In this document: positions 1,529-47,023 of the stretch, piece after piece
Layout: every line of letters begins with the position of its first letter
Position numbering within the stretch: position 1 is the first letter of the stretch
Source: Lysobacterales bacterium
GTDB taxonomy: Bacteria; Pseudomonadota; Gammaproteobacteria; Xanthomonadales; SZUA-36
DNA: 64,000 nucleotides
Reading direction: 5' to 3'
Assembly: GCA_011773845.1 (NCBI GenBank)
Contig: WVWV01000033.1
Location: 7,113 to 71,112, forward strand
The notes under the pieces: model-generated
What the model saw: only the letters and a program-made list of their open reading frames with translations
What the model was told of the DNA's origin: nothing
Databases searched by the model: none
Position numbers and translations under genes: made by a program

Positions 1529-3643
1529 CTAGCCGGCCTCCGGCCCGTTCGGTGCGACATAGGCCGCGCCCGGGCCCGCCGCGGTGATGGGCAGGTCGCG
1601 CAGGCACGCCTCGTCTGCGGCCGCATCCAGCTGCCGCGCCCACAGGTGCCCGGCATGGACGGCGTGGACGATGGCCCCGGGCGCCAGCGCGTCCCCGATT
1701 CGGCTGACGGACTTGATGCCGGCATCGGCGTGCGCCGCGCTGTGGGCCATGATCGCCCGGTACAGTTCGTCGCGCGGTTCGCGATGGCCCACGATGACGA
1801 TCGACGCGGCCGCCACCTCCCGGGGCGCGCCGGTGAAGACGCCCTCCAGCCGGGCCACGCCATCCCGGTGGCCCCGCAGCGTGCTGAGGGTGATCAGCCC
1901 GATGCCCCGCTCGTGCAGGGCGCGATGCACGAAAGGCTGCTCGTTGGTCATGAAGGTCCAGGCCGACGCGTGGCCGGCCGGGGTGGCGTAGGTCACCGCC
2001 AGGCCCTGGGCCGCGAGGTGCTCCGCCACGCAACCGCCGAGGTAGTAGTTGTCGAAGTCGTACACCAGCACCGGCGGCTCCGGCAGCCGCCCCGCCGCCA
2101 GGTCATCGGGCGTGAAGACCCCATCCTGTTCCAGGCGGCCGGCCGGGATCTCCATGGCCGAGTACAGGTGCCGGGTCCAGCGTGCGCCGGTGGCGATCAC
2201 CAGGTGCGCATGCTCCGCCGCGAGCAGCTCCGCGGCCGACAGCTCGCTGCCGGGATACAGGGTGACATTGCCCATCTGCTGCAGGGCCTGCAGGCGATAG
2301 TCGCGCACCCTGCCCCAGCTGGCCAGGCCCGGCAGGCGGGTCTCGAACAGCAACCGGCCACCGGTTTCCGCGGCGCGGTCGGCGAGGGTCACCTCGTAGC
2401 CCCGGCGGGCCGCCACCAGCGCGGCCTCCAGGCCCGCCGGGCCGGCGCCCACGATCAGAACGTTGTCGGAACGGCCTGCGGGCGGCACCCGCTCGGGGTG
2501 CCAGCCCCGCCGCCACTCCTCGCCGACCGTGGGGTTCTGCGTGCAGCGCACGGGCACGCCGTCGTGCCAGCTGGCGATGCAGATGTTGCAACCGATGCAC
2601 TCGCGGATCTCGTCCTCGCGGCCCTCGCGAATCTTGTTGGGCAGGAAGGGGTCGGCGATCGACGGCCGCGCGGCGCCGATCAGGTCCAGAATGCCCCGCT
2701 GCACCTGCGAAACCATGGTGTCCGGCGAGGTGAAACGCCCCACGCCGACCACCGGCTTGCCGGTCAGCTGCTTCACGAAATCCACCACCGGCTCGTGGGC
2801 GGCCTCCGGGCGAAAGCGCGAGGCGCCGCAATCGGTGGGGCTGGAATCCAGCTTAACGTCCCACAGATCCGGCACGTCCGCCATCAGCGCCACCGCCTCG
2901 TGCGCCTCGGAGGCATGGTGCTCGCTGGGCCTGGCCCGCAGGTGTTCCAGGCTGATGCGCAAGGCCACCCCGCAGTGCGCGCCCACCGCCTCGCGGGTGG
3001 CCTCGACGAGCTCGCGCACGAAGCGCACGCGGTTGGCCAGCGAACCCCCGTAGGCGTCCGCGCGCTGGTTGTACTCGGGCAGCAGGAACTGGTGGCCGAG
3101 GTAGCCCATGCCGGCGTACACGTAGACGATGTCGAAGCCGGCGGCATGCGCGCGCCGGGCGGCGGCGGCCTGCCAGCGAATGACGTCCCGGATGTCACCG
3201 GCATCCATCGCCCGCGGGCGTTGCTGACCCATGAAACCCACGTGCGTGGCGGCCCAGGGAATTCCGGACGGCGAGTACGGGGCGATGCGCGAGCTGCGGT
3301 TCATCACCGCGGCCCCGCCGTGCCAGAGCTCGATGGCGGCCAGCGCGCCATGCGCGTGCACCGCCTCGGTGACCAGGGCGTGGGCGCGCACGTCGTTGTC
3401 GTCCCACAGGCGCGCGAACGGCAGGGGCGAATCGTCGCAGGAGGGATGGATGGAGACGGCGCCGGTGCTGACCACGCCCCAGCCGCCCTCCGCCTTGGTC
3501 GCGCGGAAGGCGGCCCGCACCCGGGGATTGGCCTCCGTCATGCCGCTCGCGTGGGGCACCTGGTAGAAGCGGTTGGGGGCGGTCACGGGGCCGATGGGTA
3601 CCGGGTCAAACAGGATCGCGTACTTGGGGTTCACGGGCTGCAA
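1529..3643 (-). CDS. Trimethylamine/dimethylamine/histamine-dehydrogenase-family FMN + 4Fe-4S + ADP-binding flavoprotein
   Basis: 704 aa. The N-terminus 'ILFDPVPIGPVTAPNRFYQVPH' and motifs 'KAEGGW', 'CIGCNICIASWH...CTQNPTVGEEWRRGWHPE' and 'VLIVGAGPAGLEAA' are near-collinear with Methylophilus TMADH as I recall it. The residue after 'VPH' is Ala rather than the FMN-linking Cys. Confidence 0.85.
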   Translation of the reverse strand: MQPVNPKYAILFDPVPIGPVTAPNRFYQVPHASGMTEANPRVRAAFRATKAEGGWGVVSTGAVSIHPSCDDSPLPFARLWDDNDVRAHALVTEAVHAHGALAAIELWHGGAAVMNRSSRIAPYSPSGIPWAATHVGFMGQQRPRAMDAGDIRDVIRWQAAAARRAHAAGFDIVYVYAGMGYLGHQFLLPEYNQRADAYGGSLANRVRFVRELVEATREAVGAHCGVALRISLEHLRARPSEHHASEAHEAVALMADVPDLWDVKLDSSPTDCGASRFRPEAAHEPVVDFVKQLTGKPVVGVGRFTSPDTMVSQVQRGILDLIGAARPSIADPFLPNKIREGREDEIRECIGCNICIASWHDGVPVRCTQNPTVGEEWRRGWHPERVPPAGRSDNVLIVGAGPAGLEAALVAARRGYEVTLADRAAETGGRLLFETRLPGLASWGRVRDYRLQALQQMGNVTLYPGSELSAAELLAAEHAHLVIATGARWTRHLYSAMEIPAGRLEQDGVFTPDDLAAGRLPEPPVLVYDFDNYYLGGCVAEHLAAQGLAVTYATPAGHASAWTFMTNEQPFVHRALHERGIGLITLSTLRGHRDGVARLEGVFTGAPREVAAASIVIVGHREPRDELYRAIMAHSAAHADAGIKSVSRIGDALAPGAIVHAVHAGHLWARQLDAAADEACLRDLPITAAGPGAAYVAPNGPEAG

Positions 3644-3756
3644 TCGCTCCGGGCGTCACCGTCGGCGGCCGGCGTGGGGCCAAGAATACACGATCGGGAT
3701 TGAATTTGAGCGCCCGGGGGCCGAGAATGCCCCTCCGGCCAGCCGCCAGCACCCGC

Positions 3757-4816: not shown

Positions 4817-7279
4817 TTATTCTCCGAACCGCTTGATGAACCGCACCCCGTACTCGCGCGGGCGGTTGATAGTCTGCCGACCCTTGCCAAAGAAGTGGTC
4901 GAACTCGAACGGGTTGTCGTACAGGATCGCGCGCTCGTCGGTGACGTTGTTGACGAACAGCTGCACGCTCCAGTCATTGCCGTCGACGCCAAAGCGCAGG
5001 TCGCCGATGTCATAGGACGGCTGCTTGATCTGCGGCGCCGGCGAATCGATCGGCTCGACCTGGTTCAGCATGTCGCCGACATAGCTCCACTGCACGCGGG
5101 CGTACGCGTTGTTGGCGCGCCCGCCGAACCAGTTGACCGGCATGTCGTACTGCGCATAGGCCGACCCCTTGAATTCCGGCGTCAGCGGCAGGCGGGAGCC
5201 AGGCGGCGTCTCGGTCAGGAAGTTGAAGCCGTCGTCGAGTTCCGAATCGAGCCAGGTGGCGTTGAAGCCGGCCGTGAGGTTCTGGCTGGCGGCCCAGTCG
5301 ACCTGCAACTCGAAGCCGTCCGAACCCGCGTCGCCCACGTTGCCCACCACCTTCTGCCATGGCTGGGAGCAATTGGGCTCCGGCGGCGCGTTGGGGGAAC
5401 CGCAGGAGCGCGTGCTGGGGTCGATGACCTCCAGCTGGTAGTTGTTCCAGTCCATGCTGAAGTAGGTGGCATTCAGGCGCACGCGGCCGTCGGCCAGCGT
5501 CATCTTGGCGCCGAACTCGAGGTTCTCCAGCAGGTCGGACTCGAACTGCTGTGGGAACAGCGGCTCACCGCGGGTCCGGTTGGTGCCGCCGGGCCGGAAA
5601 CCCTCGGAATACAGGCCATACAGCAGGATGTTGTCGGTGGGCCGGAAGCTGAGGCTGAACTTCGGCACCACGTCGTCGTCCTTGGCCGGCAGCCTCAGGA
5701 CGCCGGTATCGGTGAGGTTGTAGCGCGGGTTCTCGACGTAGTAGGTCTTGTCCACCTCGCGGTCGAACCAGCGCGCCCCCACGGTGGCGTCCCAGCGCTC
5801 GTTGATGTGCCAGGTGAACTCGCCGAACACCGCCCATTGCTCCCAGGTGGTGTCGTCGGCCGAACGCCACCAGGCGTCGCCCGGCAGGCGCGTGGCGGCG
5901 GGGCTGCCGGACACGCGTCCGGCGAGGTAGTTCTGCATCGACTTGGACTCGTCAAAGCCGTCGGCGAAGGTATCGAACACCCAGTCCTGGTCGGCCTGCT
6001 CGTAGAACAGGCCCGCCACCCAGTCGAAGCGCTCGCCCTGCGAAAACAGCCGGAATTCCTGCGCGAACTTGGTGTCCTTCTGCGCGTTGCGCAGGTACCC
6101 GACCGGGTCGTTGTAATAGTTGCCGACGCCGGCGGGCTGGAAGCAGTACGGGCTGTAGTTCGAATAGTCGTAGTAATACCCGGCGTAGCAGAACGTGCCG
6201 AAGTAGGACGCGTAGGTCTGCGTGTCCTGGGTGTAGGTCCAGTCACGGGTGAAGTAGGAGGTGGCCGACACGAAATCGGCGAAGCCCAGATCGCCCTCGA
6301 AGGTCAGGGAATACTGGGTCCAGTCGAGGTCATCCTCTTCCCGGTCCGGCCGGAAACGCGCCACGGACAGGTCGCGATCGAGGGTCGGATCGCGCTCCGG
6401 CCGGCCGTGCGACATCGTGTCCTGGTGGACGATGCCGGCGGTCATGGTCCAGCCTTCGTTGATGAACCAGCGCGCCGCGATGCGCCCGCCGAAGTGCTCG
6501 ACATCGTTGAAATTCTTGCGCTCTGCGCCGGCGTTGTTGAACACGCCATACTGCACGGAATCGCCATTGACGTTGTCGATGAAGCCCCCGTCCTCGGCGG
6601 AAAAGCCCACCAGGCGAATGGCGAAATTCTGCGAGATGGGGATGTTGACCATGGCGCTCACGTCATAGCTCATGTCGCTGTCGGAGCCGGTCTTGAGCGT
6701 GGCGTCGATGAAGGAATCGAACGCCGCCGGGTCAGGCTTGTTGGTGATCACGCGCAACAGCCCGGCCTGGGCACTGGCGCCGTACAGCGTGCCCTGCGGC
6801 CCGCTGAGCGCCTCGATGCGCGCAATGTCCACCATGCGCGGGTCCGGCGTCGCGTTGAGGGTCAGGGACTGCTCGTCCAGATACAGCGCCGCCGTCGGCT
6901 CGGCGATGAAGTTCTCTCCCGAGTCCGAAATACCGCGGAACACGAGCACCGCGGATCCCGGGTTGGTCGCCGTGTACGACATGGACGGGATGAAGCGGAC
7001 GTAATCATCCATGGAATACAGGCCGCCCAGCTTGAGATCCTGCTCCGAGATGGCCTGGATGCTCTCCGGGATGTCCATCATGCTTTCTTCGCGCTTGCGC
7101 GAGGTGACCACGATTTCCTCGAGCGCCCCCGCGGCGGCCTCGTCGGGCTGCTCCTGGGCGAGCGCCGCACCCGCCGGCGTGGCCAGCACCGCCGAGATGG
7201 CCAGCGAAAGCTTGCGCGGCTCCAGGTGATTTTGAACGGTGAACGTGTGGCTGAAAACGGAATCGTTCCGGTTCGACAT
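4817..7279 (-). CDS. TonB-dependent outer-membrane receptor
   Basis: 820 aa. Signal peptide '...AVLATPAGAALAQE', plug-domain motif 'EEIVVTSRKREESMMDIPESIQAIS', and a long Gly/Tyr/Asp/Asn-rich beta-barrel ending '...REYGVRFIKRFGE'. Confidence 0.9.
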   Translation of the reverse strand: MSNRNDSVFSHTFTVQNHLEPRKLSLAISAVLATPAGAALAQEQPDEAAAGALEEIVVTSRKREESMMDIPESIQAISEQDLKLGGLYSMDDYVRFIPSMSYTATNPGSAVLVFRGISDSGENFIAEPTAALYLDEQSLTLNATPDPRMVDIARIEALSGPQGTLYGASAQAGLLRVITNKPDPAAFDSFIDATLKTGSDSDMSYDVSAMVNIPISQNFAIRLVGFSAEDGGFIDNVNGDSVQYGVFNNAGAERKNFNDVEHFGGRIAARWFINEGWTMTAGIVHQDTMSHGRPERDPTLDRDLSVARFRPDREEDDLDWTQYSLTFEGDLGFADFVSATSYFTRDWTYTQDTQTYASYFGTFCYAGYYYDYSNYSPYCFQPAGVGNYYNDPVGYLRNAQKDTKFAQEFRLFSQGERFDWVAGLFYEQADQDWVFDTFADGFDESKSMQNYLAGRVSGSPAATRLPGDAWWRSADDTTWEQWAVFGEFTWHINERWDATVGARWFDREVDKTYYVENPRYNLTDTGVLRLPAKDDDVVPKFSLSFRPTDNILLYGLYSEGFRPGGTNRTRGEPLFPQQFESDLLENLEFGAKMTLADGRVRLNATYFSMDWNNYQLEVIDPSTRSCGSPNAPPEPNCSQPWQKVVGNVGDAGSDGFELQVDWAASQNLTAGFNATWLDSELDDGFNFLTETPPGSRLPLTPEFKGSAYAQYDMPVNWFGGRANNAYARVQWSYVGDMLNQVEPIDSPAPQIKQPSYDIGDLRFGVDGNDWSVQLFVNNVTDERAILYDNPFEFDHFFGKGRQTINRPREYGVRFIKRFGE

Positions 7280-7508
7280 GCCTGTACCCTCAGTAGTAGT
7301 TCTGACTTTGATTATTGTGTTTATGGTTGTAATTCCGGGCGATCATATGATGCGCGCGCGAAAAATACAAATGTCCCCGGTTTGCCGCTGCCCGGGCCAG
7401 GTCTCGCGGGGCAGGGCTGACACCCCGCGCCGCCACCCCGCCGGGCCGCACCCCGGCGCCGGGCTTCGGGTATACTCGGCCCGCCGGTTGCAGCGGAGAC
7501 GAAGCCTG

Positions 7509-8081
7509 GTGGACATCGAAGTACCCTTGCGCGACCTCGGCGCGGTCGACGCCCGGGCCCTCATCGAAACGGTGCTGGGTCTGGATGCGGAATCCTGGAA
7601 AGCCCAGGAATACCGCCAGAACGCCTACGAGGTCCACAAGCAGACACGCTCGCTGGTGCTGGTGTTCTGCAGCGGCTGGCCGGAGCTGCAGGTGACCCGC
7701 GAGCCGGCCTGGGACACCCTCAAGGAAGTGGCCGTGCCACTCATGCACGGCATCCTCGCCGAGCACTACCCGCCCGGCGGCACCATCATCCGGGCCATGG
7801 CGGCCAAGCTGCTCGCCGGCGGCGTCATCACCCCGCATCGCGACAGCCACCCCTCGTTCGTCAACAGCCACCGCATCCACATCCCGATCACCACCAACCC
7901 GGGCGTGCGCTTCATGATCAACGGGCGTCCCTACCGGTTCGAGGTGGGCCACGCGTACGAGATCAACAACCAGCTCAACCACAGCGTCATGAACAGCGGC
8001 GCGGAAGACCGCGTCACCTTCATCTTCGACTACCTGCCGCCGGGCGGCGCCGCGGGGCACGAAGCGCCAACGGCCCATTGA
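7509..8081 (+). CDS. Aspartyl/asparaginyl beta-hydroxylase-family (cupin, 2OG/Fe-type) protein
   Basis: Motifs 'ITPHRDSHPSF...HRIHIPITTN...NHSVMNSGAEDRVTFIFDY'. GTG start at 7509 chosen because GGAGAC lies about 9 nt upstream; the N-terminal part of ORF 7239-8081 lies in AT-rich promoter DNA. Confidence 0.7.
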   Translation: MDIEVPLRDLGAVDARALIETVLGLDAESWKAQEYRQNAYEVHKQTRSLVLVFCSGWPELQVTREPAWDTLKEVAVPLMHGILAEHYPPGGTIIRAMAAKLLAGGVITPHRDSHPSFVNSHRIHIPITTNPGVRFMINGRPYRFEVGHAYEINNQLNHSVMNSGAEDRVTFIFDYLPPGGAAGHEAPTAH

Positions 8082-8098
8082 CCGGGGCGCGGCCCGCC

Positions 8099-10129
8099 TC
8101 AGGCGAGTGACGCCGGCCGGTCTTCGGCCGGGAGCTCACGCAGCAGCGGTGCCAGCACCGCGATCAGCTCTCCGATTTGCGGCTCGTAGTTGCGCCAGTA
8201 ATTCAGGGCCTTGGTGTAGATGGGTTGCCGGACCTGCTCCGAGCTGGCGGTGTTGATGGCCCTTTCGGTCTCCCAGAAGCGCAGGCAGCCGTCCTCCCAC
8301 GGCAGGCCCAGGTAGTCGAGGATGCGGCGGGTCTGCGCCTCCTGGTCGCGCACCAGGTCCTCGTAGCGCACGTCCAGCACCTTGCCGGGCAGCACCCGGT
8401 GCCAGTGGTCCATGATGCGCTGGTATTGCAGGTAGTACTGGCCCAACTCGAAGAAATCGTAGGAAAACGACTGGCCGTTGAAAAACAGTTGCTTCCAGGT
8501 CCCCAGGCAGCTGTCCAGGGGATGGCGCCGGGCGTTGATGACCCGGGCGTTGGGCAGCATGAGGTGCAGCAGCCCGATCATGGGAAAGTTGTTGGGCATC
8601 TTGTCGATGAAATAGGGCAGCCCGGTACGGTAGCGCCGCGTCGATTCCATGTAGTTCCGGCCCAGTTCCAGCAGGGCCCCCTCCGGCAACGGCTCGAGCG
8701 CCTCGGGGTACTGCACGCCATCCTTGCGGCTGCGGTTGATGTCGCGCACCGCACGGCTCAGGTCCGGCAATTCCATGGTGCCTTCGACCTGGCTGTGGCT
8801 GGCGATGATCTGCTCGATCAGGGTGGAGCCCGAGCGGGGCAGGCCGACGATGAGGATCGGGTCCGGGCTGGGATCGCCCCAGCCGGCCCGCGCGGCCAGG
8901 AATTCCGGCGTGAACGTTTCGATGATCCGGTCATGCAGGTGCTGGGTGTGGACCGGGTCGTAGGTTTCCTGGGCCCGGCGCAGTTCCGCGCCCGCCCGGT
9001 AGTGCTCGAAGGCGCGTTCGAACTGCTCCTGGCCGTCGTACTGCTTGCCGAGGGCATAGTGGAAATTGACCTTGGGCTCATCGCCCAGGTGCGGTTCCCC
9101 GACCATGCGCTCCATGACGCCCACTTCCTCCGCGGTGAACTCGAAGGTCTTGAGATTGGCCAGGCTCCAGTAGGCCTCGCCATAGGCCGGATGGGCCTCG
9201 ATACACTTGCGGTAGGCGGCAACGGACTCTTCCTGCCGGCCGACGGTTTTCAACACGTGGCCCATGCCCGCCAGTGCGCCACCATGCACCGGGCTCAGCT
9301 CCAGCGCCTTCTGGTACGCCTCCAGCGCCTCGTCGTGGCGCTGCGCCTTCGATAGTACGCCCCCCTTGGCCACCCACGCGTGCGGCAGGCTGGGGTCCAG
9401 CCCGATCGCGGTATCCGCCGCCTCCAGCGCCTCCGCGTACCGGTCCAGTTTCATCAGCACGGTGGTCAGGTCGATCCAGCCGAGGGTGAAGTCGGGCCCG
9501 CTCTCCACCGCCCGCCGCAGCAGGCGCAGCGAGGGGCGCCAGCGATTGGCATCCATCGCGATGGTGGCCAGCAAACGCAACGCCACCGGGTCATCGGGCT
9601 TCGCCGCCAGGTGCTCGCGCAGGATCTTCTCCGCCTCGCCCGCCTGGCCCGCGGACATGGCCTCCGAGGCCTGCGAAATCACCGCCTTGTCGGGGTTCAA
9701 CTCGATCGCGCGCTGGATGGCGCGCTCGGCTTCCGCGCCCTCGCCGCTCATGGCCAGCGCCCGGCCCAGCGCGAGGTGCGTCGAGTAGCGGTCCGGCAGG
9801 GCCTCGGCAGCCTGTCGCAGGTAGCGGGCCGCGCGGCGGGGCTTGCGCTCGGCAAGCAGGGCCCGGCCCTTGCCTTCGAGGGCCCGCGGGTAGTCGGGAA
9901 AGTTCTTCAGGGTGCGGGAGAACCAGGACTGCGCCTCCTGCGGCTGGCGCCGGGCCAGCAGGATCTCCCCCAGCAGACACAGCAGGTTCGGATCGCGCGG
10001 ATAAATGACCTGGCCGCGCCGGCAGACGCGCTCGGCATCATCCAGTTCACCGGCCTGCTTGGCCCGCAGGGCAGTTTCGTAGAACGCGCGGACCGATTGG
10101 TCCGATGTCTTGAGGCCCGTGTCTGTCAT
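8099..10129 (-). CDS. TPR-repeat protein fused to a sulfotransferase domain
   Basis: 676 aa. The N-terminal two-thirds are TPR-like helices. The C-terminal part carries the PAPS-binding-type motif 'LIVGLPRSGSTLIEQIIASH' and '...RYEDLV...'. Confidence 0.85.
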   Translation of the reverse strand: MTDTGLKTSDQSVRAFYETALRAKQAGELDDAERVCRRGQVIYPRDPNLLCLLGEILLARRQPQEAQSWFSRTLKNFPDYPRALEGKGRALLAERKPRRAARYLRQAAEALPDRYSTHLALGRALAMSGEGAEAERAIQRAIELNPDKAVISQASEAMSAGQAGEAEKILREHLAAKPDDPVALRLLATIAMDANRWRPSLRLLRRAVESGPDFTLGWIDLTTVLMKLDRYAEALEAADTAIGLDPSLPHAWVAKGGVLSKAQRHDEALEAYQKALELSPVHGGALAGMGHVLKTVGRQEESVAAYRKCIEAHPAYGEAYWSLANLKTFEFTAEEVGVMERMVGEPHLGDEPKVNFHYALGKQYDGQEQFERAFEHYRAGAELRRAQETYDPVHTQHLHDRIIETFTPEFLAARAGWGDPSPDPILIVGLPRSGSTLIEQIIASHSQVEGTMELPDLSRAVRDINRSRKDGVQYPEALEPLPEGALLELGRNYMESTRRYRTGLPYFIDKMPNNFPMIGLLHLMLPNARVINARRHPLDSCLGTWKQLFFNGQSFSYDFFELGQYYLQYQRIMDHWHRVLPGKVLDVRYEDLVRDQEAQTRRILDYLGLPWEDGCLRFWETERAINTASSEQVRQPIYTKALNYWRNYEPQIGELIAVLAPLLRELPAEDRPASLA

Positions 10130-15899: not shown

Positions 15900-15950
15900 G
15901 AGCCGGTCCCGCTCAAGTATTGACCCACGCCCGCCACTCCGCAAGCCGCC

Positions 15951-18416: not shown

Positions 18417-19937
<1,521 letters not shown>

Positions 19938-31178: not shown

Positions 31179-31199
31179 CGATCTTCCCACTCCCGGCGC

Positions 31200-34569: not shown

Positions 34570-35225
34570 GTCCGTGCGCGCTCCTGTGCGGGGTCGCCAA
34601 AATGGTCCGGGAAGGTATGCGCCAGGTGGTCCATGGCGATGCCCAGGGCCTGCCGGCGCGTCATGTGGCGGGGCGAGACCAGCATGTCCAGCCACAGCCC
34701 CTCGGACATGGCGGCCATGCCGCGGGCCACGGACTCGGGTTTGATCCCGGGATAATCGCCCTCGGCAATGAGGTCGCCGCACAACTGGCGCAGTTGCCGG
34801 TCGTAGCCGCGATCGCGGTCCGCACAGAGTCTGCGATAGGTGGGGCGGGACTTGGACTCGCCCCAGAATGCAAACCACACCGCCAGCTTGTTGCGATCAC
34901 ACACGGAAGGGTGGAAATCCACTTCCACCAGCGCCGCCAGGCGCTCGGCGCTGCTCGGGCCGGCGCGGTCGAGCGCCCTCTCCCAGCGGGACTTGTACTC
35001 GTCCACCACGTAAGCCAGCGTTTCCAGCAACAGGCGCTCCTTGCTGTTGAAGTGGAGGTTGATGATGCCCTGGCTGAGCCCGGCCTCCGCGGCGACGGTA
35101 GCGATGGTGGTATCGGAAAGGCCCTGGCCTGCGATCGAGCGGATGGTCGCCTGGATCAGTTGCGCGCGCCGCTTCTCCCGGGGCTCGGTGCGCCGGGGCC
35201 GGGCCTTGGCAACCGCGCCACTCAT
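34566..35225 (-). CDS. TetR/AcrR-family transcriptional regulator
   Basis: HTH region 'RRAQLIQATIRSIAGQGLSDTTIATVAAEAGLSQGIINLHFNSKE'. Start set at ATG 35225 (GGAAG upstream). The longest ORF begins at TTG 35291. Confidence 0.8.
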   Translation of the reverse strand: MSGAVAKARPRRTEPREKRRAQLIQATIRSIAGQGLSDTTIATVAAEAGLSQGIINLHFNSKERLLLETLAYVVDEYKSRWERALDRAGPSSAERLAALVEVDFHPSVCDRNKLAVWFAFWGESKSRPTYRRLCADRDRGYDRQLRQLCGDLIAEGDYPGIKPESVARGMAAMSEGLWLDMLVSPRHMTRRQALGIAMDHLAHTFPDHFGDPAQERART

Positions 35226-35320: not shown

Positions 35321-35342
35321 TGAATGAATGATTATTCATTCA
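35321..35342. promoter_or_regulatory. Candidate TetR operator: perfect 9-bp inverted repeat TGAATGAAT-GATT-ATTCATTCA
   Basis: Read directly from the sequence. It lies in the AT-rich divergent control region between the TetR-led minus-strand array and the plus-strand operon beginning at 35416. Confidence 0.45.
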
Positions 35343-39928: not shown

Positions 39929-41134
39929 ATGCGCACCGTGAGATTCGACCGCCGCGACCATTACCGGCACAAGGTCTTCCCCAGCCCGTTCCATGCCCGC
40001 CAGCAGGCGCACAACGAGCTCAAGGTGTGGTCGCGCTGGTTCGACTACCTGTCCGTGCCGGCCTACACCTGCGCGCAGATGGAGTATTTCGCCGGGCGCA
40101 ATGCCTGCGGCGTGTTCGACCTGACGCCGATGACCAAGCACCGGGTGAGCGGGCCCGACGCCCTGCCCTACCTGAACCGGCTGCTGACGCGGGATGTGGG
40201 CAAGATCCGGCCGGGGCGCGTCGGCTACAGCGTGTGGTGCACGGACGAGGGCCAGGTCATCGACGACGGCACCGTGTTCCACCTGCGCGAGGGGGAGTAT
40301 CGCATCTGCTCACAGGAGCACCAGATCGACTGGTTCCTGATCTCGGCCCTCGGCTTCGATGTCGAGGTCGTCGAGGAGACGCACGACGTGGCGGCGCTGG
40401 CCCTGCAGGGCCCGACCTCCTGCGCCACCCTCAAGCGCATGGGGCTGGACGGCATCGAGAACCTGACCCCGTTCGGCTTGGCCCATTTCGACTTCCAGGG
40501 CACCCAGCTGATGGTCTCGCGCACCGGTTACACCGGCGACCTGGGTTATGAGCTGTGGATCGATCCCGGCCACGCCGAACCGTTGTGGAACCGCCTGTTC
40601 GAGGCCGGGCGGCTGCTCGGCATCAAGCCGATGGGCTCCGAGGCGCTCGACCTGCTGCGCATCGAGGCGGGCTTCATTCTGGCGGGCGTCGATTTCATGC
40701 CGGCCCAGCAAACCGTGCGGCCCACCCACACGCGCACGCCGTTCGAGCTCGGCCTGGGGTGGCTGGTGGACTTCGACAAGCCCGTTTTCAACGGCCGGCG
40801 CGCCCTGCTCGCGGCCCGGGAACGGGGGCCGCGCTACCGGCTCGTCAGGCTGGACATCGAGGGCAACAAGCCCGCCCACCACTCCTACGTGTACTCGACC
40901 CGCAACAAGAACATCGGCTGGGTCACCTCCGCCATGTGGTCGCCCTCGGCCAAGGCCAACATCGCGCTGGCCACGGTAGCAGCGCCGCATGGCGAGCCCG
41001 GCGAGGAAATGCGGATCGAGATTTACTATCAGCGTGAACTGAAGTGGAGCCGCATGATGGCCAGCGCCCGGGTGGTGGAAGGCGCGTTCTACGACCCGCC
41101 ACGCCGGCGCGAAACGCCGCCCCTGGACCACTGA
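39929..41134 (+). CDS. Aminomethyltransferase (GcvT) family folate-binding protein, stand-alone
   Basis: 401 aa with 'VFDLTPMTKHRVSGPDA', 'VSRTGYTGDLGYELW' and 'EALDLLRIEAG'. GGGAG RBS lies upstream. Confidence 0.85.
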   Translation: MRTVRFDRRDHYRHKVFPSPFHARQQAHNELKVWSRWFDYLSVPAYTCAQMEYFAGRNACGVFDLTPMTKHRVSGPDALPYLNRLLTRDVGKIRPGRVGYSVWCTDEGQVIDDGTVFHLREGEYRICSQEHQIDWFLISALGFDVEVVEETHDVAALALQGPTSCATLKRMGLDGIENLTPFGLAHFDFQGTQLMVSRTGYTGDLGYELWIDPGHAEPLWNRLFEAGRLLGIKPMGSEALDLLRIEAGFILAGVDFMPAQQTVRPTHTRTPFELGLGWLVDFDKPVFNGRRALLAARERGPRYRLVRLDIEGNKPAHHSYVYSTRNKNIGWVTSAMWSPSAKANIALATVAAPHGEPGEEMRIEIYYQRELKWSRMMASARVVEGAFYDPPRRRETPPLDH

Positions 41135-41160: not shown

Positions 41161-43245
41161 ATGGCCCATCGACTGGACCCCCTGCTGAAACCGGCTTCCA
41201 TCGCGGTGCTGGGCGCCAGCCAGCGCCCGGGCGTGGGGCAACAGGTCCTACGCAACCTCTTGCAGGGCGGCTTCGGGGGGCCACTGTATGCCGTCAACCC
41301 GGCTTACCGGGAAGTCTGCGGTGTACCCTGCTTTCCGTCGCTGGACGACCTACCGGAGCCCGTGGAGCACGTGGTGTTCGCCGTCAGCGACCCGCGCGTG
41401 GAGGCGGCGCTGGAACAGGTCATCGCGCACGGCGCCCGCGCTGCAACACTCATGTCGCAACTGGTGCTGGCCGACGATCCCGCACCGACCCTGCTCGAGC
41501 GCGTGCGCTCGCGCATCCTCGAGGCCGGCCTGCTGGTGTGCGGCGGCAACGCCCTGGGTTTCTACAACTGCCGGGACGGCGTGTGGGCCTGCGGCTTCGA
41601 CACGCGGGACAACCACCCCCGCGGCGGCCATGTCACGCTGATCAGCCAGTCCGGATCCGGCATGGCTGGCATCGTCGATTGCGAAGAGCGGATCGACTTC
41701 AACCTGGCGGTCTCCACCGGCCTGGAGCTGAGCGTCGGCCTGCACGATTACATGGATTTCGCCATCGAAGCCCACGCGCCGCGCGCGATCGGCCTGTTCA
41801 TGGAGACCGTGCGCGACCCGGCAGGCATGTGCGCGGTGCTGGACAAGGCGCAGCGGCGGAACGTGCCCGTGGTGGCGCTCAAGGTGGGCCGCACCGCACT
41901 GGCGGCCCGGCTGGCCTTGTCGCACTCCGGCGCCATTGCCGGCAGCGACGCCGCCTACCAGGCCCTGTTCGACCGCTACGGGGTGCAGCGCGTGCACGAC
42001 ATGGATGAGCTGGCGAGTGCGTTAATCATGTTCGCGCAACCGCACGAGGTGGCGCCGGGCGCCCTGGTCGCCATACACGACTCCGGCGGCGAGCGGCAGC
42101 TGCTGATCGACCTGGCCGATGCGATGGAGGTGCCCCTCACGGAGCTCGCGCCCGCCACCGCGCGCGCCCTCACCGAGCGGCTCGACCCGGGGCTGCCGCC
42201 GGTCAACCCGCTGGACGCCTGGGGCGCCGGCGGCCCGGACGCGGACGCCATCATGGAGGATTGCCTGGCAGCGCTGATGAGCGACCCGGGGGCGGCGCTG
42301 GGCGCGGTCATTCACGACCGCTCGCCGTTCGGGCGCATCTATCCAGCCTATATCGACTACCTGCGCAAGGCCCACGCCGCCACCGGCAAGCCGGTATTCC
42401 TGGTCGCAAACCGGCAGGGCACCGGCACCGACCCCGTCGTGGTCGAGGTGACGCGCGAGGGCTTTCCGGTGCTCGACGGCCTGCGCCCGTTCCTGGCGGG
42501 CGTCCGCTGCCTGCTGTCGGTGCGTGACTTCCGCGCCCGCACCCGCCCCGAGCTGCCCACTGTCGACCCAGAGGTGGCCGCGCGCTGGCGGGAGCGGCTG
42601 GCGGGCGGCGGCGCGCTGGACGAGGTTCGCTCGCTCGCCATGCTGGGCGACTTCGGGCTGCCCGTGAACCCCGCCCTGCCCGTCACCAGCCGCGAGGAAC
42701 TGCTGGCCGCCGCCGCGCGGCTCGGCTATCCGCTGGTGCTCAAGACCGCCAAGGCCGGCCTGCACCACAAGACGGAAGCTGGTGGGGTGCGGCTGGACCT
42801 GCCCGACGAGGCCGCCTTGCTGGACGCCTACGCCTCGTTGTGCGAGCGCGTGGGGCCGCAGGCGCTGGTGGCGCGCATGGTGCAGTCCCCTGGCCTGGAG
42901 TTGCTGCTCGGCATGGTCCGCGACGAACAGTTCGGGCCCCTGGTCACCCTGGGCTTCGGCGGCATCGACGTGGAGCAGATGCGGGATTTCGCCTGCGCAA
43001 TGCCGCCGTTCGACGCCGCCACCGCCCACCGGCTGCTGGCAACGCTGCACCGGAGCCGCATGCTGGCGGGCGGGCGGCGCATCGGCACCCCGGCAATTGA
43101 GGCATACTGCGAGATGGCCTCGCGCTTCTCGGTCATGGTGGACGCCCTGGCGGGGGTGCTGGAGGAGATCGACATCAACCCGGTGATCGTGCATGCCACG
43201 GGATGCATCGGCGTGGACGCGCTGGTGGTCGCGCGGCGATCATGA
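41161..43245 (+). CDS. ADP-forming acyl-CoA synthetase (acetate--CoA ligase family: CoA-binding + succinyl-CoA-synthetase-like + ATP-grasp domains)
   Basis: 694 aa with 'LLKPASIAVLGAS', 'TLISQSGS' and the C-terminal ATP-grasp motif 'GYPLVLK...GGV'. Start at ATG 41161, downstream of the gcvT-like stop. Confidence 0.85.
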   Translation: MAHRLDPLLKPASIAVLGASQRPGVGQQVLRNLLQGGFGGPLYAVNPAYREVCGVPCFPSLDDLPEPVEHVVFAVSDPRVEAALEQVIAHGARAATLMSQLVLADDPAPTLLERVRSRILEAGLLVCGGNALGFYNCRDGVWACGFDTRDNHPRGGHVTLISQSGSGMAGIVDCEERIDFNLAVSTGLELSVGLHDYMDFAIEAHAPRAIGLFMETVRDPAGMCAVLDKAQRRNVPVVALKVGRTALAARLALSHSGAIAGSDAAYQALFDRYGVQRVHDMDELASALIMFAQPHEVAPGALVAIHDSGGERQLLIDLADAMEVPLTELAPATARALTERLDPGLPPVNPLDAWGAGGPDADAIMEDCLAALMSDPGAALGAVIHDRSPFGRIYPAYIDYLRKAHAATGKPVFLVANRQGTGTDPVVVEVTREGFPVLDGLRPFLAGVRCLLSVRDFRARTRPELPTVDPEVAARWRERLAGGGALDEVRSLAMLGDFGLPVNPALPVTSREELLAAAARLGYPLVLKTAKAGLHHKTEAGGVRLDLPDEAALLDAYASLCERVGPQALVARMVQSPGLELLLGMVRDEQFGPLVTLGFGGIDVEQMRDFACAMPPFDAATAHRLLATLHRSRMLAGGRRIGTPAIEAYCEMASRFSVMVDALAGVLEEIDINPVIVHATGCIGVDALVVARRS

Positions 43246-43274
43246 TCCAATGACGACACATCGAGGTGAGAGAC

Positions 43275-44807
43275 ATGAGCCTGGCAAATCTGGAATCCTA
43301 CCAACGCACCGACTGGCAGCAGGCGGCCGACCGGGCCGGGGCCAACATCGAGACCCGCCTGTTCATCGACGGTGAATTCGTCGATGCCGCGGGCGGCGGG
43401 CGTTTCGACACCCTCAACCCCGCCACCGGCGAGGTGATTGCCTCGATGTCGGCAGGCACCGCGGCGGACATCGACCGGGCGGTGGCCGCGGCGCGCCGGG
43501 CGTTCCGTTCCGGCGTGTGGTCGCGCATGGCGCCGCGCCGGCGGATGGAGGTCCTGTACCGTTTCGCCGACCTGGTGGAGGCGCGCGCCGAGCAGCTGGC
43601 GGTGCTGGAAACGCTGGACATGGGCAAGCCCATCGCGGACGTGATCGGCGAAGACCTGCCGGCCGTGTGCCAGACGCTGCGCTTCATGGCCGAGTGCATC
43701 GACAAGGTCGACGGGGCGGTGACCAACACCGCGGACGACGTGGTGCACATGGTGTTGCGGGAGCCGCTGGGGGTGGTGGGCGCCATCTCGCCCTGGAACT
43801 ACCCGCTGCTGATGGCCACCTGGAAGATCGCGCCGGCCCTGGCGGCCGGCAACACGGTGGTGCTCAAGCCCGCCGAGCAATCGCCCCTCAGTTGCCTGCG
43901 GCTGGCGGAACTGTTCCTGGAGGCCGGCGGCCCCCCGGGGGTGTTCAACGTGGTCAATGGCATGGGCGAGGAGGCCGGCAAGGCGCTGGCCCTGCACCCG
44001 AACGTGGCCAAGATCAGCTTCACCGGCTCCACCGAGGTGGGCAAGCTGATCCTGCAGTACGCCGGCCAGTCCAACATGAAGCACGTCGGCCTGGAGTGCG
44101 GCGGCAAATCGCCGCAGCTGTTCATGGCTGACCTGCCGGACCTGGGCAGCGCGGTGGCGGCCGCCTACAACGGCGTGTTCGCCAACATGGGCGAGGTGTG
44201 CAGCGCCGGCTCGCGACTGCTGGTGGAGCGCCCCATCTACATGGACTTCATCGAGCGCTTCATCGCCGAGGGTCGTGACGCCTACGTGCCCGGCGACCCG
44301 CTGGACCCCGGCACCAACATGGGTCCGCTGGTCACCCGGAGCGACCAGCAGCGCGTGCTGGCAATGATCCAGGCCGGCCGGGACGAGGGGGCGACGCTGC
44401 ATTTCGGCGGCGACGTGCCGGCGGGACTGGAGCGAGGCGCCTTCGTCAACCCCACGCTGTTCGCGGACGTGAACAACGACATGACCATCGCGCGCCAGGA
44501 GATTTTCGGCCCGGTGGCCAGCGTGATTCCCTTCGACGGCGTGGACGAGGTGCTCGAAATCGCCAACGACACCATCTACGGCCTGGCGGCGGGCGTGTGG
44601 ACCCGCGACATCGACAAGGGCTTCCACCTCCTCAAGCGCATCGAGGCGGGGATCGTGTGGGTCAACTGCTACGAGGGGGGCGACATGACGCAGCCGTTTG
44701 GCGGCTACAAGCAGTCGGGCAATGCGCGTGACAAGTGCATCGACAGCTACAAGAGCTACACGCAGTCGAAATCGGCCTGGATCCAGCTCGCGGGTGGCCC
44801 GGGCTGA
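43275..44807 (+). CDS. NAD-dependent aldehyde dehydrogenase (PuuC-like branch), second copy
   Basis: Motifs 'SPWNYP', 'FTGSTEVG', 'LECGGKSP', 'EIFGPV' and 'PFGGYKQSGNARDK'. ATG 43275 is preceded by GAGGTGAGAG. Confidence 0.9.
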   Translation: MSLANLESYQRTDWQQAADRAGANIETRLFIDGEFVDAAGGGRFDTLNPATGEVIASMSAGTAADIDRAVAAARRAFRSGVWSRMAPRRRMEVLYRFADLVEARAEQLAVLETLDMGKPIADVIGEDLPAVCQTLRFMAECIDKVDGAVTNTADDVVHMVLREPLGVVGAISPWNYPLLMATWKIAPALAAGNTVVLKPAEQSPLSCLRLAELFLEAGGPPGVFNVVNGMGEEAGKALALHPNVAKISFTGSTEVGKLILQYAGQSNMKHVGLECGGKSPQLFMADLPDLGSAVAAAYNGVFANMGEVCSAGSRLLVERPIYMDFIERFIAEGRDAYVPGDPLDPGTNMGPLVTRSDQQRVLAMIQAGRDEGATLHFGGDVPAGLERGAFVNPTLFADVNNDMTIARQEIFGPVASVIPFDGVDEVLEIANDTIYGLAAGVWTRDIDKGFHLLKRIEAGIVWVNCYEGGDMTQPFGGYKQSGNARDKCIDSYKSYTQSKSAWIQLAGGPG

Positions 44808-44810
44808 AGC

Positions 44811-45632
44811 ATGGCGGCGGGCTCCGACTACCGGCTCATCCGCTACGCGGTGGAGCGTGGCGTGGCGCGGCTCACGCTCGACCGGCCGGACAAGCTCAAC
44901 GCCATCAACGCGCCGATGGTGGCGGAATTGAACCACGCGCTGGACCGCGCCGAGGCGGACGAGGGGGTGCGGGCAATCGTGCTGGACGGCGCGGGGCGGG
45001 CCTTCTCGGCGGGCTTCGACCTGCAGACCGAGGCCGACGCGGGCGATGCGGCGGCCCTGCGCCGGGAACTCGAAGCCGACCTCGCCATCATCATGCGCTT
45101 CTGGAACTGCCCCAAGCCGACGGTGGCCGCCGTGCACCAGTGGTGCCTCGGCAGCGCGATGGAGATGGCGCTGGCCTGCGATGTCACGGTGGCGGCAGCA
45201 GACTGTCGTTTCGGCGCGCCGGAAGTCCGCTTCGGCAGCGGCATCGTGTGCATGATCCTGCCGTGGCTGTGCGGGCCCAAGCGCGCCAAGGAACTGCTGT
45301 TGACCGGTAACGACCGGGTCAGCGCCGAGCAGGCCGAGGCCTGGGGGCTGGTCAACCGGGTCGTGCCGACCGACCGCCTGCAGCAGGAGGCGCTGGCGCT
45401 GGCGCGCGAGATCGCCGCCAACGACGCGCTGGCGGTGCGGCTGACCAAGCGGGCCGTCAACCGCGCCGCGGAACTGGCCGGCATGCCGGCGGCCCTGGCC
45501 GAGGCGCTGGCCCTCGACGTGGAGATCGAGAGCACCGAGACCGAGGAGTCGCGGGCCTTCAACGAGGTCCTCGAGCGCGAGGGGACGCGCGCGGCGATCG
45601 CCTGGCGCAACGCCCGCCTCGGCAACGAATGA
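44811..45632 (+). CDS. Enoyl-CoA hydratase/isomerase (crotonase) family protein
   Basis: 273 aa with 'LTLDRPDKLNAIN' and 'GAGRAFSAGFDL'. The start lies 3 nt after the ALDH stop. Confidence 0.9.
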   Translation: MAAGSDYRLIRYAVERGVARLTLDRPDKLNAINAPMVAELNHALDRAEADEGVRAIVLDGAGRAFSAGFDLQTEADAGDAAALRRELEADLAIIMRFWNCPKPTVAAVHQWCLGSAMEMALACDVTVAAADCRFGAPEVRFGSGIVCMILPWLCGPKRAKELLLTGNDRVSAEQAEAWGLVNRVVPTDRLQQEALALAREIAANDALAVRLTKRAVNRAAELAGMPAALAEALALDVEIESTETEESRAFNEVLEREGTRAAIAWRNARLGNE

Positions 45633-45649
45633 CACCTGGAGAGAAGCCC

Positions 45650-47023
45650 ATGGCAAAAGCACCATTGCAGCAGGAGCTCCAACAGTACCTGCAGGACCAC
45701 CCGGAGACCGTGAACCTGGAGTTGCTGATCACCGACATGAACGGCATCGTGCGCGGCAAGCGGGTCGGCCCGGAAGATTTTGCCAAGGCGTTCAAGAACG
45801 GGGTCAATTTCTGCGGCAGCACGGTGGTGATGGACACCCTGGGCCGGACTTTCGAGACGGTCGTGTACGGCGGCCATGATGGCGACCCGGACCTCAAGGC
45901 CATGGCCGTGCCGGGGACGCTGGCGCCCGTCCCCTGGGCCAGCCGGCCCAGCGGACAGGTGCTGCTGGAATTGCTGGACCTGGAATCGCGGCCGATGTTC
46001 TTCGACCCGCGCAACGTGCTCCGGCGCGCCCTGCAACCGCTTGCCGAAGCGGGCCTGCGGCCGGTGCTGGCCACCGAGCTGGAGTTCTACCTGGTGGAGC
46101 ACGACGGCGAGGCCTTCCGGCCGCGCGCCGCGCGCATCCCGGGCACGGACCTGCCGCAGGTGGGCCAGCAGTACGCCATCATGGAGGACCTGTACGAGAT
46201 CGACGACTTCCTCCGCGGCCTGGAGCAGGCCTGCGCGGCGCAGAACATACCGGCCGGCGCCACCCTGTCGGAATATTCGCCGGCCCAGTTCGAGATCAAC
46301 CTGCATCACGTCGACGACCCGGTGCTGGCCTGCGACCACGCGGTGATGCTGAAGCGCGCGGTGAAGGCGGTGGCCCGCCAGCACGGGCTGGCGGCGACCT
46401 TCATGGCCAAGCCGTTTCCCGACATTGCCGGCAGCGGACTGCATGTCCACCTCAGCCTGCTGGATGCGGACGGCAACAACGTGTTTGCCGGCGAGTGCGC
46501 CGACGGCCCCTTCTCGGACACCCTGCGCCACGCCATCGGCGGGCTGCGCGACATCATGGCCGAGAGCATGGCCATCTACTCGCCCAACGCCAACTCCTAC
46601 CGGCGTTACGCGCCCTGGTCGTACGTGCCGACGACGCCCAACTGGGGCCTCAACCACCGCAGCCTGGCGCTGCGCATCCCGCTGTCGGGCCCGGCCAACA
46701 CCCGCGTCGAGCACCGCGTGGCGGGCGCCGATGCCAACCCCTACCTGGTGGTGGCCACATTGCTGGCGGGCATCCATCACGGCATCACCCGCGAGGTCGA
46801 TCCCGGGCGCATGGTGCAGACCGGCGAGGTGGTCGAGCACGAGGTGACCTTGCCCATCCGCTGGCCGCTGGCGCTGGACGCCTTCGATGCCGGCAGCCTG
46901 CTGCCCGGCTACCTGGGGGAGGACTACCACCAGCTGTTCTCGGCCTGCCGGCGGGAGGAGGAAGGCCAGTTCCACGCCCAGATCACCAACCGCGATTTCG
47001 AGTGGTACCTGCGCGCGGTGTGA
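45650..47023 (+). CDS. Glutamine-synthetase-family gamma-glutamyl-amine ligase (PuuA/PauA-like)
   Basis: Motifs 'ELEFYL', 'SPAQFEIN', 'KPF...GSGLHVHLSL' and 'NSYRR'. ATG 45650 has GGAGAG upstream. ATG 45629, overlapping the upstream stop as ATGA, is an alternative. Confidence 0.9.
   Translation: MAKAPLQQELQQYLQDHPETVNLELLITDMNGIVRGKRVGPEDFAKAFKNGVNFCGSTVVMDTLGRTFETVVYGGHDGDPDLKAMAVPGTLAPVPWASRPSGQVLLELLDLESRPMFFDPRNVLRRALQPLAEAGLRPVLATELEFYLVEHDGEAFRPRAARIPGTDLPQVGQQYAIMEDLYEIDDFLRGLEQACAAQNIPAGATLSEYSPAQFEINLHHVDDPVLACDHAVMLKRAVKAVARQHGLAATFMAKPFPDIAGSGLHVHLSLLDADGNNVFAGECADGPFSDTLRHAIGGLRDIMAESMAIYSPNANSYRRYAPWSYVPTTPNWGLNHRSLALRIPLSGPANTRVEHRVAGADANPYLVVATLLAGIHHGITREVDPGRMVQTGEVVEHEVTLPIRWPLALDAFDAGSLLPGYLGEDYHQLFSACRREEEGQFHAQITNRDFEWYLRAV

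Follow-up and report, generated by a model that had tools for sequence, protein, structure and literature searches.

Methylated amines and betaines are major marine currencies of carbon, nitrogen and energy, and the locus considered here raises the question of whether many demethylation-type genes, gathered in one place, amount to several parallel systems or to fewer, differently organised ones. The locus occupies positions 1529-47023 of a stretch of 64,000 nucleotides (hereafter the window; contig WVWV01000033.1, positions 7,113 to 71,112, of assembly GCA_011773845.1) from an uncultured member of the Wenzhouxiangellaceae. A preliminary description of the window had recognised four systems, namely a dehydrogenase of the trimethylamine dehydrogenase (TMADH) family, a betaine-type Rieske oxygenase, an MttB/corrinoid/MeTr/RACo set, and FAD oxidoreductases with a stand-alone GcvT, and had taken their redundancy to reflect several substrates or oxygen regimes. 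All of these genes are found at or within a few bases of the positions assigned to them, and the broader claim of a specialised, conserved neighbourhood for passing N-methyl groups to the folate pool is supported, as the linkage recurs in related genomes. The region as a whole is a real conserved methylated-amine catabolic neighbourhood. The count of four systems and the redundancy fit the region poorly: the Rieske oxygenase and the flavoprotein/GcvT module form one unit, and the separate corrinoid block looks like a single shared hub. In our reading, which we consider probable, the region is better seen as three layers, each with a history of its own, joined in a mosaic than as four parallel systems. 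The layers are an old core unit around one BetI-type repressor and one operator (27.0-47.0 kb, with the DAO-family gene at 17.0 kb), a corrinoid block (18.4-26.9 kb), and a left arm of neighbouring genes.

The evidence for the old unit comes first from gene order in relatives. The family comparison covered 94 genomes, in 20 of which ~32 kb around the flavoprotein genes was fetched, and the outgroup comparison covered 80 loci around Rieske relatives from named genomes (G and L numbers denote genomes and loci, C numbers contigs of the host assembly). CrtI1, as we call the first of two PYROXD2-like flavoproteins, has orthologs of 75-86 % identity in 81 of the 94 genomes, the Rieske oxygenase in 64 and the corrinoid activase RACo in 50, these family-wide counts not being phylogenetically independent. 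The CrtI1 and Rieske genes lie no more than 12 kb apart on one contig in 47 of the 63 genomes that have both, and are never further apart on a shared contig; CrtI1 and RACo are within 24 kb of each other in 13 of 46 genomes, and 8 genomes, drawn from 6 genera, have the three genes linked. The common core comprises, on one side, a BetI-type TetR regulator, an acyl-CoA dehydrogenase (ACAD), a PotF-type ABC importer and the Rieske oxygenase and, on the divergent side, an aminotransferase, the flavoprotein pair, GcvT, an ADP-forming CoA ligase, an aldehyde dehydrogenase, a crotonase and a glutamine-synthetase-like ligase. This layout is also present at loci labelled Steroidobacteraceae (L036), Woeseiaceae (L041), Porticoccaceae (L043) and a beta-proteobacterium (L044), as well as at three loci of unclassified Gammaproteobacteria (L040, L081, L108), and no corrinoid genes occur at any of these seven outgroup core loci. 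Synteny, which the preliminary description had put forward as a check, thus shows the clustering to be conserved in relatives. The 45.5 kb also represents 1.7 % of the 2.73-Mb assembly, and contains two of the four MttB genes of the genome, its sole RACo and sole DUF1638 genes, its only corrinoid-protein and MeTr genes (MetH aside), two of its three MTHFR-family genes, both PYROXD2-like genes and its sole TMADH-family gene. The recurrence of the linkage, together with this share of gene families in so small a part of the assembly, indicates that the clustering is beyond chance.

The second line of evidence is the region between the two divergent halves of the core. The regulator (34566-35225, minus strand; Pfam TetR_N and TetR_C_6, PF13977 at 91 bits) exceeds the curated cut-off of one NCBIfam BetI model (PRK00767, NF001978; 127 bits against 118) and falls below that of another (TIGR03384; 123 bits against 201). 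Upstream of it, the 190-bp divergent promoter region holds a perfect 9-4-9 palindrome, TGAATGAATGATTATTCATTCA (35321-35342), which we regard as the candidate operator. It is the sole site in the window at three or fewer mismatches, none arose in shuffled sequences, and it is the sole close copy in the genome, where the two other matches differ from the core at two positions each. That core, ATGAATGA-N4-TCATTCAT, stands at the same position in 16 of the 20 family loci and likewise in G001, G015 and one Woeseiaceae locus (L041). A regulon-wide motif that would also join the left arm was considered and is ruled out by this single close copy; a scan of the window found no copy of the operator at the DAO-family gene, at the array headed by the first MTHFR paralogue, or at the TMADH-family gene.

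The near-universal linkage and the single shared operator mean that the Rieske oxygenase and the flavoprotein/GcvT module are not independent systems; they are two arms of one repressor-centred unit with a common PotF-type importer. This bears directly on the proposal that the region holds four demethylation systems that are independent and in part redundant, and that serve several substrates or oxygen regimes, in which the O2-independent corrinoid and O2-dependent Rieske routes would be alternatives for one step. The proposal gains from the fact that characterised MttB-type and Stc2-type relatives both act on quaternary N-methyl groups (PDB names; PMC12478193), from the adjacency of MttB and Rieske genes here and in four other genomes (G001, G015, G053, G016), and from genomes that have only one of the corrinoid and Rieske sets beside the flavoprotein/GcvT module, as would be expected of interchangeable parts. 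Against this stand the linkage and common operator just described, a corrinoid set that has no second copy in the genome and on which MttB genes elsewhere must also draw, and a TMADH-family gene that is unlinked outside the nearest genus. On balance we find four parallel systems a doubtful interpretation.

The plus-strand arm of the unit begins with a class-III aminotransferase (35416-36747; GSA-aminomutase/GntE-like, NCBIfam GntE 441 bits against a cut-off of 525), followed by CrtI1 (36765-38384) and a second PYROXD2-like flavoprotein (38377-39924), both assigned by Pfam and NCBIfam to the Amino_oxidase/CrtI-like group and overlapping by 8 nt. The two paralogues are 36 % identical. Their best NCBIfam match is CrtO-like, at 265 bits against a cut-off of 1000, and CrtI in the PDB reaches 67 bits. 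UniRef names their orthologs PYROXD2 after the orphan human protein, a link at the level of names. Proteins of two cultured Wenzhouxiangellaceae, Elongatibacter sediminis and Marinihelvus fidelis, are among the CrtI1 orthologs. A carotenoid role for the pair was rejected, given that its surroundings contain no carotenoid genes, its scores fall well short of the cut-offs, and the two genes are invariably linked to GcvT. The stand-alone GcvT-fold, folate-binding protein (39929-41134; 401 aa; Pfam GCV_T 199 bits, GCV_T_C 50 bits) follows the pair in all 20 family loci where the contig extends far enough. Its best match is the C-terminal part of the trimethylamine N-oxide demethylase Tdm (181 bits in the PDB, 255 bits in NCBIfam), and DmdA scores lower (106 bits in the PDB, 153 bits in NCBIfam against a cut-off of 410). 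In the complete genome G001, an IS3-type transposase truncates the GcvT ortholog (L014:1319-2296), and either a frameshift or an in-frame TGA interrupts the orthologs of CrtI1 and MttBb (L014/L015), so that this locus is seemingly decaying or carries assembly errors.

Behind GcvT lie an ADP-forming acyl-CoA synthetase (41161-43245; NCBIfam 3-hydroxypropionate-CoA ligase 224 bits, below cut-off), a PuuC/BADH-like aldehyde dehydrogenase (43266-44807; NCBIfam PuuC 557 bits against a cut-off of 850), an enoyl-CoA hydratase of the crotonase type (44811-45632; Pfam) and a PuuA-like ligase of the glutamine synthetase type (45629-47023; gamma-glutamylputrescine synthetase 211 bits against a cut-off of 650), all on the plus strand. 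This order, from 41161 to 47023, is repeated in seven genomes (G015, G018, G043, G072, G007, G003, G021). A reading of GcvT, CoA ligase, ACAD and crotonase as dimethylsulfoniopropionate demethylation (DmdA-D) was also rejected; the DmdA scores are low and the ligase is ADP-forming, not AMP-forming.

A combination of an amine-oxidising flavoprotein with a GcvT-fold folate module that captures C1 units is familiar from dimethylglycine dehydrogenase (DMGDH), sarcosine dehydrogenase, SoxABDG and Tdm. In those systems, however, the flavoprotein has the DAO fold, whereas the flavoproteins here have the CrtI/PYROXD2 fold, are two paralogues with coupled translation, and are accompanied by GcvT as a separate polypeptide. 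The unit also counts a DAO-family gene. The DAO-family FAD oxidoreductase at 17007-18299 (plus strand; Pfam DAO 237 bits) is sarcosine/pipecolate-oxidase-like, with NCBIfam pipecolate oxidase at 195 bits, below cut-off. Its gene adjoins the Rieske gene in G043 and in the Porticoccaceae locus L043, adjoins MttBb orthologs in G015, G016 and G006, and in G019 adjoins the MttBa gene of an MttBb-MttBa pair.

The minus-strand arm of the unit ends in the Rieske oxygenase (27038-28216), an alpha subunit only, of 392 aa and of the Stc2/GbcA type (Pfam Rieske and Ring_hydroxyl_A). The gene calls need some comment here. Raw lists of open reading frames (ORFs) are mostly spurious frames because the GC content of the window is 64-71 %, and we therefore picked frames by GC at third codon positions (GC3), checked them with Pfam, NCBIfam and a PDB sequence library, and adjusted start codons using ortholog coverage. 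The Rieske gene was missed by GC3 calling because a long overlapping ORF masks the GC3 signal, and was recovered by a motif search and re-framing; one of two ABC permeases (28273-29076), likewise under a long overlapping ORF, was also missed by GC3 alone and recovered by re-framing. The Rieske protein carries the motif CRH..CPYH at residue 75 and the mononuclear-iron motif ECYHCAPAH at residue 190. Its closest PDB relatives are 3n0q (230 bits), the stachydrine demethylase-type 3vca (212 bits) and 4qup, the last two grouped as 3vca/4qup in the 212-230-bit range, and it shares with Stc2 and GbcA the 2Fe-2S and mononuclear-iron motifs, a length of ~390-410 aa and the lack of a beta subunit. It differs from them in that no Stc3/Stc4- or GbcB-type reductase is adjacent, and in that its gene lies behind a PotF-type rather than a betaine-type importer.

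That importer is composed of the re-framed permease, a second permease (29073-29990; Pfam), an ATPase (30012-31190; Pfam) and two binding proteins, SBP1 (31200-32288; PotF in the PDB, 331 bits) and SBP2 (32291-33400; NCBIfam PotF 370 bits against a cut-off of 636), which are paralogous and 62 % identical. It is preceded by the ACAD gene (33403-34569; Pfam), whose start overlaps the stop of the TetR gene and whose product resembles acryloyl-CoA reductase and crotonobetainyl-CoA dehydrogenase (NCBIfam AcrC 181 bits, CaiA-type 162 bits, both below cut-off). All of these genes are on the minus strand. Throughout, NCBIfam matches were judged against curated cut-offs, and a match below its cut-off was taken to indicate a relative, not an equivalog.

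These components invite comparison with the Puu pathway of E. coli and the Spu system of P. aeruginosa. The locus shares with them an importer of the PotF/SpuD/SpuE kind, served by a pair of binding proteins, as well as a ligase resembling PuuA, aldehyde dehydrogenases resembling PuuC, and an aminotransferase of class III. The core could on this basis be ordinary putrescine/spermidine catabolism, with the Rieske, PYROXD2-like and GcvT proteins engaged in reactions other than demethylation (e.g. cleavage of polyamine C-N bonds) and the corrinoid block adjacent by accident and used for glycine betaine or methionine synthesis. The scores of the binding proteins (331 and 370 bits) and aldehyde dehydrogenases (557 and 615 bits), the presence of polyamine oxidases in the Amino_oxidase fold (Pfam family), the closeness of MttBb to glycine-betaine-type MttB proteins, and the additional part that MtgCD take in methionine synthesis in Ruegeria (PMC12478193) are all in keeping with such a view. 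Compared with Puu/Spu, however, the PotF, PuuA and PuuC scores all lie below equivalog cut-offs, no PuuD-type hydrolase was seen, and three N-demethylase-type enzymes and a BetI-type regulator, above a curated cut-off, have been added. A C1-to-folate transferase fold constantly behind the flavoprotein pair is hard to explain without a C1 product, and the Rieske enzyme has its nearest relatives among betaine demethylases. Moreover, the corrinoid block stands directly behind the same TetR gene in three genomes that have no Rieske or ABC genes (G009, G044, G022), which argues against accidental adjacency, and a classical MetH is present. Ordinary polyamine catabolism is therefore, to our mind, rather unlikely.

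The demethylation reading of the core unit leads us to propose the following model. We infer that the unit would serve the catabolism of a cationic N-methylated amine, either polyamine-like or quaternary. The BetI-type TetR would bind the single palindromic operator between the two divergent operons, and the PotF-type importer would bring in the substrate. The Rieske enzyme would strip N-methyl groups oxidatively, yielding formaldehyde; the flavoprotein pair would also strip N-methyl groups, and GcvT would pass the iminium or formaldehyde equivalent to tetrahydrofolate (THF), giving 5,10-methylene-THF. The demethylated amine may then be transaminated or gamma-glutamylated, oxidised to an acid and converted to a CoA thioester. 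In the corrinoid block, a quaternary-amine methyl group would be transferred to a Co(I)-corrinoid and on to methyl-THF, which MetF2 would oxidise to methylene-THF. The substrate and the order of steps are both predictions of this model.

A more far-reaching version, which we put forward tentatively and would not expect to hold in full, is that the BetI-type-controlled supra-operon represents a whole pathway, hitherto undescribed, for N-methylated cations of the aminopropyl or polyamine type. In this version, quaternary nitrogen would fall to the corrinoid or Rieske enzymes, tertiary and secondary nitrogen to the DAO-family enzyme and to the PYROXD2-like pair together with GcvT, and the C3 skeleton would leave via 3-hydroxypropionyl- or acryloyl-CoA. 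Substrates may include the N-methylated long-chain polyamines of diatoms, N-methylputrescine, homocholine or beta-alanine betaine. If true, this would be the first biochemical function for PYROXD2-type flavoproteins, the orphan human enzyme included. We found nothing bearing on this locus in the literature on the Sinorhizobium gamma-butyrobetaine CoA pathway, on homocholine or beta-alanine betaine degradation, or on Wenzhouxiangellaceae amine metabolism. The novelty that remains lies mostly in the uncharacterised flavoprotein/GcvT module and the substrate of the core unit. One regulator, two binding proteins and one operator provide a compact experimental handle for finding that substrate and the role of the PYROXD2-like and GcvT proteins, and the cultured relatives Elongatibacter and Marinihelvus carry the core unit.

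The second layer, the corrinoid block, occupies 8.5 kb between the DAO-family and Rieske genes and is oriented like the Rieske operon. Reading away from the Rieske gene on the minus strand, it starts with a corrinoid (B12-binding) protein (CoP; 26230-26940; Pfam B12-binding and B12-binding_2, with a DIHDIG motif). CoP is MtgC-like, with scores against two NCBIfam MtgC models (209 and 178 bits) that fall below the cut-offs (370 and 310), so that equivalence to the clades of those models is not established. A DUF1638 protein (25608-26204; Pfam DUF1638 109 bits) and a small conserved ORF (25306-25617; MVKLTSIYWRDIPAQV...) follow. This ORF, between the DUF1638 and MeTr genes, has no Pfam or NCBIfam match, and a gap of equal size occupies the same slot in G001, G015 and G018. 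Next come a pterin-binding methyl-THF:corrinoid methyltransferase of the MtgD type (MeTr; 24363-25265; NCBIfam PRK07535 365 bits, above the cut-off of 259) and a RACo/RamA-type corrinoid reductive activase with an N-terminal ferredoxin-like part (22349-24343; Pfam RACo_C_ter, Raco_middle and RACo_linker; NCBIfam AcsV 380 bits). An MTHFR-like paralogue in the position of MetF2 (21486-22352; Pfam MTHFR 34 bits, over cut-off; NCBIfam fadh2 56 bits) is the second of the two such paralogues previously noted, at 15951-16823 and 21486-22352, and Pfam and NCBIfam bear out both; the canonical MetF of the genome lies on another contig (C55).

The block is completed by two members of the MttB superfamily, neither of which is of the pyrrolysine (Pyl) type, as both ORFs are uninterrupted. 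MttBb (19954-21477; Pfam MTTB, PF06253, 614 bits) is MtgB-like, and matches 4yyc at 346 bits and the glycine betaine methyltransferases 9yce/2qne at 302 bits. MttBa (18417-19937; Pfam MTTB 253 bits) is divergent, scoring 186 bits against MtgB and 163 bits against MttB in the PDB, and its orthologs (80-82 % identity) stand in tandem with MttBb in G001, G018 and G019. Both may be regarded as candidate quaternary-amine methyltransferases. Two further observations concern G015 and G001, in which the place of the PotF-type importer, between the ACAD and Rieske genes, is taken by a gene for a secreted amidohydrolase-like protein (L017:12703-14595, L014:9068-10462) and a 686-aa hydantoinase/oxoprolinase-like ASKHA gene follows RACo (L018:4347-6407), both putative assignments made by reading the sequences.

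A closely similar set of proteins has recently been described in aerobic bacteria. MtgB, MtgC, MtgD, MetF2, RamA and DUF1638 were reported in Ruegeria pomeroyi DSS-3 and Phaeobacter inhibens (Mausz et al. 2025, PMC12478193), where MtgBCD form a glycine-betaine methyltransferase/split methionine synthase and MetF2 probably oxidises methyl-THF; the genes are often co-located with later demethylation steps, and several MttB paralogues may use one corrinoid core (PMC12478193). The likeness extends to every part, with a non-Pyl pfam06253 MttB, a small corrinoid protein, a pterin-binding MeTr, an MTHFR paralogue, RACo/RamA and DUF1638 all present here, as well as to an oxygen-using proteobacterial host and several MttB paralogues per corrinoid set. 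There are also clear differences. In R. pomeroyi the genes are dispersed; here they form a single contiguous block, which follows the operon of the Rieske enzyme and PotF-type importer with its BetI-type repressor. MttBa has, in addition, diverged strongly from MtgB. A methionine-synthesis role for the block is not required, given that a classical MetH and the canonical MetF are present. The B12-dependent aerobic route, recognised only in 2025, is here physically joined to an older, widely conserved and uncharacterised demethylation unit with a polyamine-type importer, and both appear to be under one repressor with a defined candidate operator.

The genome at large suggests what the block may be for. 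MetH (contig C133) aside, there is one copy each of CoP, MeTr, RACo and DUF1638, and stand-alone S-methyltransferase domains occur on contigs C70, C91 and C34. The four MttB genes include one on contig C29, within a cluster (~16.3-34.2 kb) that also holds a DMGDH-like gene, SoxB-SoxA-SoxG, SoxB-SoxA, a BCCT transporter and an AMP-forming ligase. This cluster looks like a canonical glycine betaine route. Its MttB is 43 % identical to MttBb, it adjoins a TonB-dependent receptor and a TPR-sulfotransferase, and it has no corrinoid genes, so that its MttB would have to borrow the corrinoid set of the window. As that set is the only one in the genome, the block is probably a hub shared by all four MttB paralogues, and it looks like such a hub rather than a redundant alternative. 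Sharing of this kind would explain why one corrinoid set can suffice for four MttB paralogues.

The distribution of the block in relatives sets it apart from the core. Three layouts are found in the family, with the Rieske gene only, with the corrinoid block only, directly behind the TetR gene as noted above, or with both. Within one genus, G001 and G019 have corrinoid genes and G043 has none at the locus, where the DAO-family gene adjoins the Rieske gene, and no RACo in its genome. The simplest reading is that the block is separable, and was either inserted between the DAO-family and Rieske genes here or lost elsewhere.

Such variation could also be taken to indicate that all 47 kb were acquired recently, as a genomic island. 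A tRNA-Thr(TGT) gene (48399-48474, minus strand) lies 1.4 kb past the right end of the cluster, and the first 5 kb, holding the MFS transporter and TMADH-family genes, stands at the 98th percentile for GC and the 92nd percentile for tetranucleotide distance. That segment is, however, the sole compositionally unusual part of the window: from 5 to 47 kb the tetranucleotide distance stays within the 16th to 78th genome percentiles, and the composition shows no sign of recent transfer. No integrase, transposase, repeat borders or other mobility genes were found in the 64-kb window, and nearly the whole family carries the core unit, at 75-86 % identity. An island of recent origin is thus highly improbable, and the earlier caution that horizontal acquisition could not be claimed was well founded, both the composition of the 5-47-kb part and the lack of mobility genes in the window giving no basis for such a claim.

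Several points weigh against the three-layer reading and temper it. The host assembly is a metagenome-assembled genome (MAG) of 165 contigs and 90 % completeness, so that statements about single copies in it are provisional. No GbcB- or Stc3/Stc4-type reductase was found in the window, and none is recognisable in the genome, where the best match to the GbcB model reaches 68 bits against a cut-off of 500 in this 90 %-complete assembly. Nearly all specific NCBIfam matches fall below their cut-offs, and enzyme names at the level of substrates are not established for this reason. The control of both divergent operons by the TetR at the palindrome is predicted rather than observed. Co-transcription of the 16-gene minus-strand array, from TetR to MttBa, is plausible, with all junctions overlapping or no more than 97 nt apart and terminator-like sites no commoner along it than in shuffles. 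The 97-nt gap between the Rieske and CoP genes, at the junction with the corrinoid block, does however contain a weak terminator-like hairpin with a T-rich tail (26960-26974, minus strand), and the block may accordingly have a promoter of its own. Finally, the direction of the event, insertion here or loss elsewhere, is a provisional reading of outgroup gene order.

The third layer, the left arm, consists of neighbours that are linked to the unit elsewhere only in part. The preliminary description counted the TMADH-family gene as one of the demethylation systems, but no evidence seen here ties that gene to demethylation, to folate or to C1 capture. The encoded Fe-S flavoprotein (1529-3643, minus strand; Pfam Oxidored_FMN and Pyr_redox_2) shares the three-domain architecture (an OYE-like FMN domain and ADP-binding domains) and the 4Fe-4S motif CIGCNICI..C with solved members of the TMADH/histamine dehydrogenase group, which it matches at 477-592 bits. 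It is closer to histamine dehydrogenase (3k30, 592 bits; 6l6j, 589 bits) than to trimethylamine dehydrogenase (477 bits). Histamine dehydrogenase deaminates a primary amine. In place of the cysteine that gives rise to 6-S-cysteinyl-FMN (flavin mononucleotide) in TMADH there is Ala, the alignment giving VPHA here against VPHC in histamine dehydrogenases; Ala at this position is also seen in 6l6j and in the C30A mutant entry of TMADH, 1djq. There is, furthermore, no folate-binding partner. Among five relatives with the core cluster, an ortholog (76 %) is found only in G018, of the nearest genus, where the whole left arm is collinear, and the other four have only FadH-like paralogues of ~30 % identity. 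The MFS transporter gene that abuts it (242-1528, minus strand; Pfam MFS_1 148 bits) has a syntenic ortholog of 81 % identity in G018.

To the right of this pair lies a conserved flank in which no demethylase gene is recognised (4817-10129), made up of a TonB-dependent receptor (4817-7279, minus), an Asp/Arg-hydroxylase-like gene (7239-8081, plus) and a TPR-sulfotransferase (8099-10129, minus), all assigned by Pfam. At the outgroup loci L036 and L040 the same three genes follow the Rieske gene directly, whereas in the window they lie 17 kb from it. Pairs of TonB-dependent receptor and TPR-sulfotransferase occur at least four times in the genome (tblastn; the window and contigs C52, C29 and C6). 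A second PuuC/BADH-like aldehyde dehydrogenase follows on the plus strand (10319-11812; Pfam Aldedh 552 bits; NCBIfam PuuC 615 bits against a cut-off of 850, BADH 498 bits), and then a MATE exporter (11871-13244, plus strand; Pfam MatE), which adjoins the locus in six other genomes as well (G018, G043, G044, G022, G058, G071). Two MATE exporters had been attributed to the region; both exist, and the other (57288-58736) falls outside it.

The remainder of the left arm is a minus-strand array of four genes headed by the first MTHFR-like paralogue (15951-16823), followed by a di-iron membrane protein of the FA_desaturase family (14862-15944; Pfam/NCBIfam), a membrane protein without a family match (14133-14855) and a further gene without a family match (13281-14120). 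Parts of this array adjoin the DAO-family or Rieske gene in five genomes (G018, G043, G072, G003, G021).

Beyond the right end of the cluster, a gene for an IPTL-CTERM-type protein (47116-48213) separates it from the tRNA-Thr gene, to the right of which are housekeeping genes (BirA-like, SPOR, PlsY and RF3) and, abutting plsY, a gene for a DAK2-FakA-like/DegV fusion (50257-52736, minus strand).

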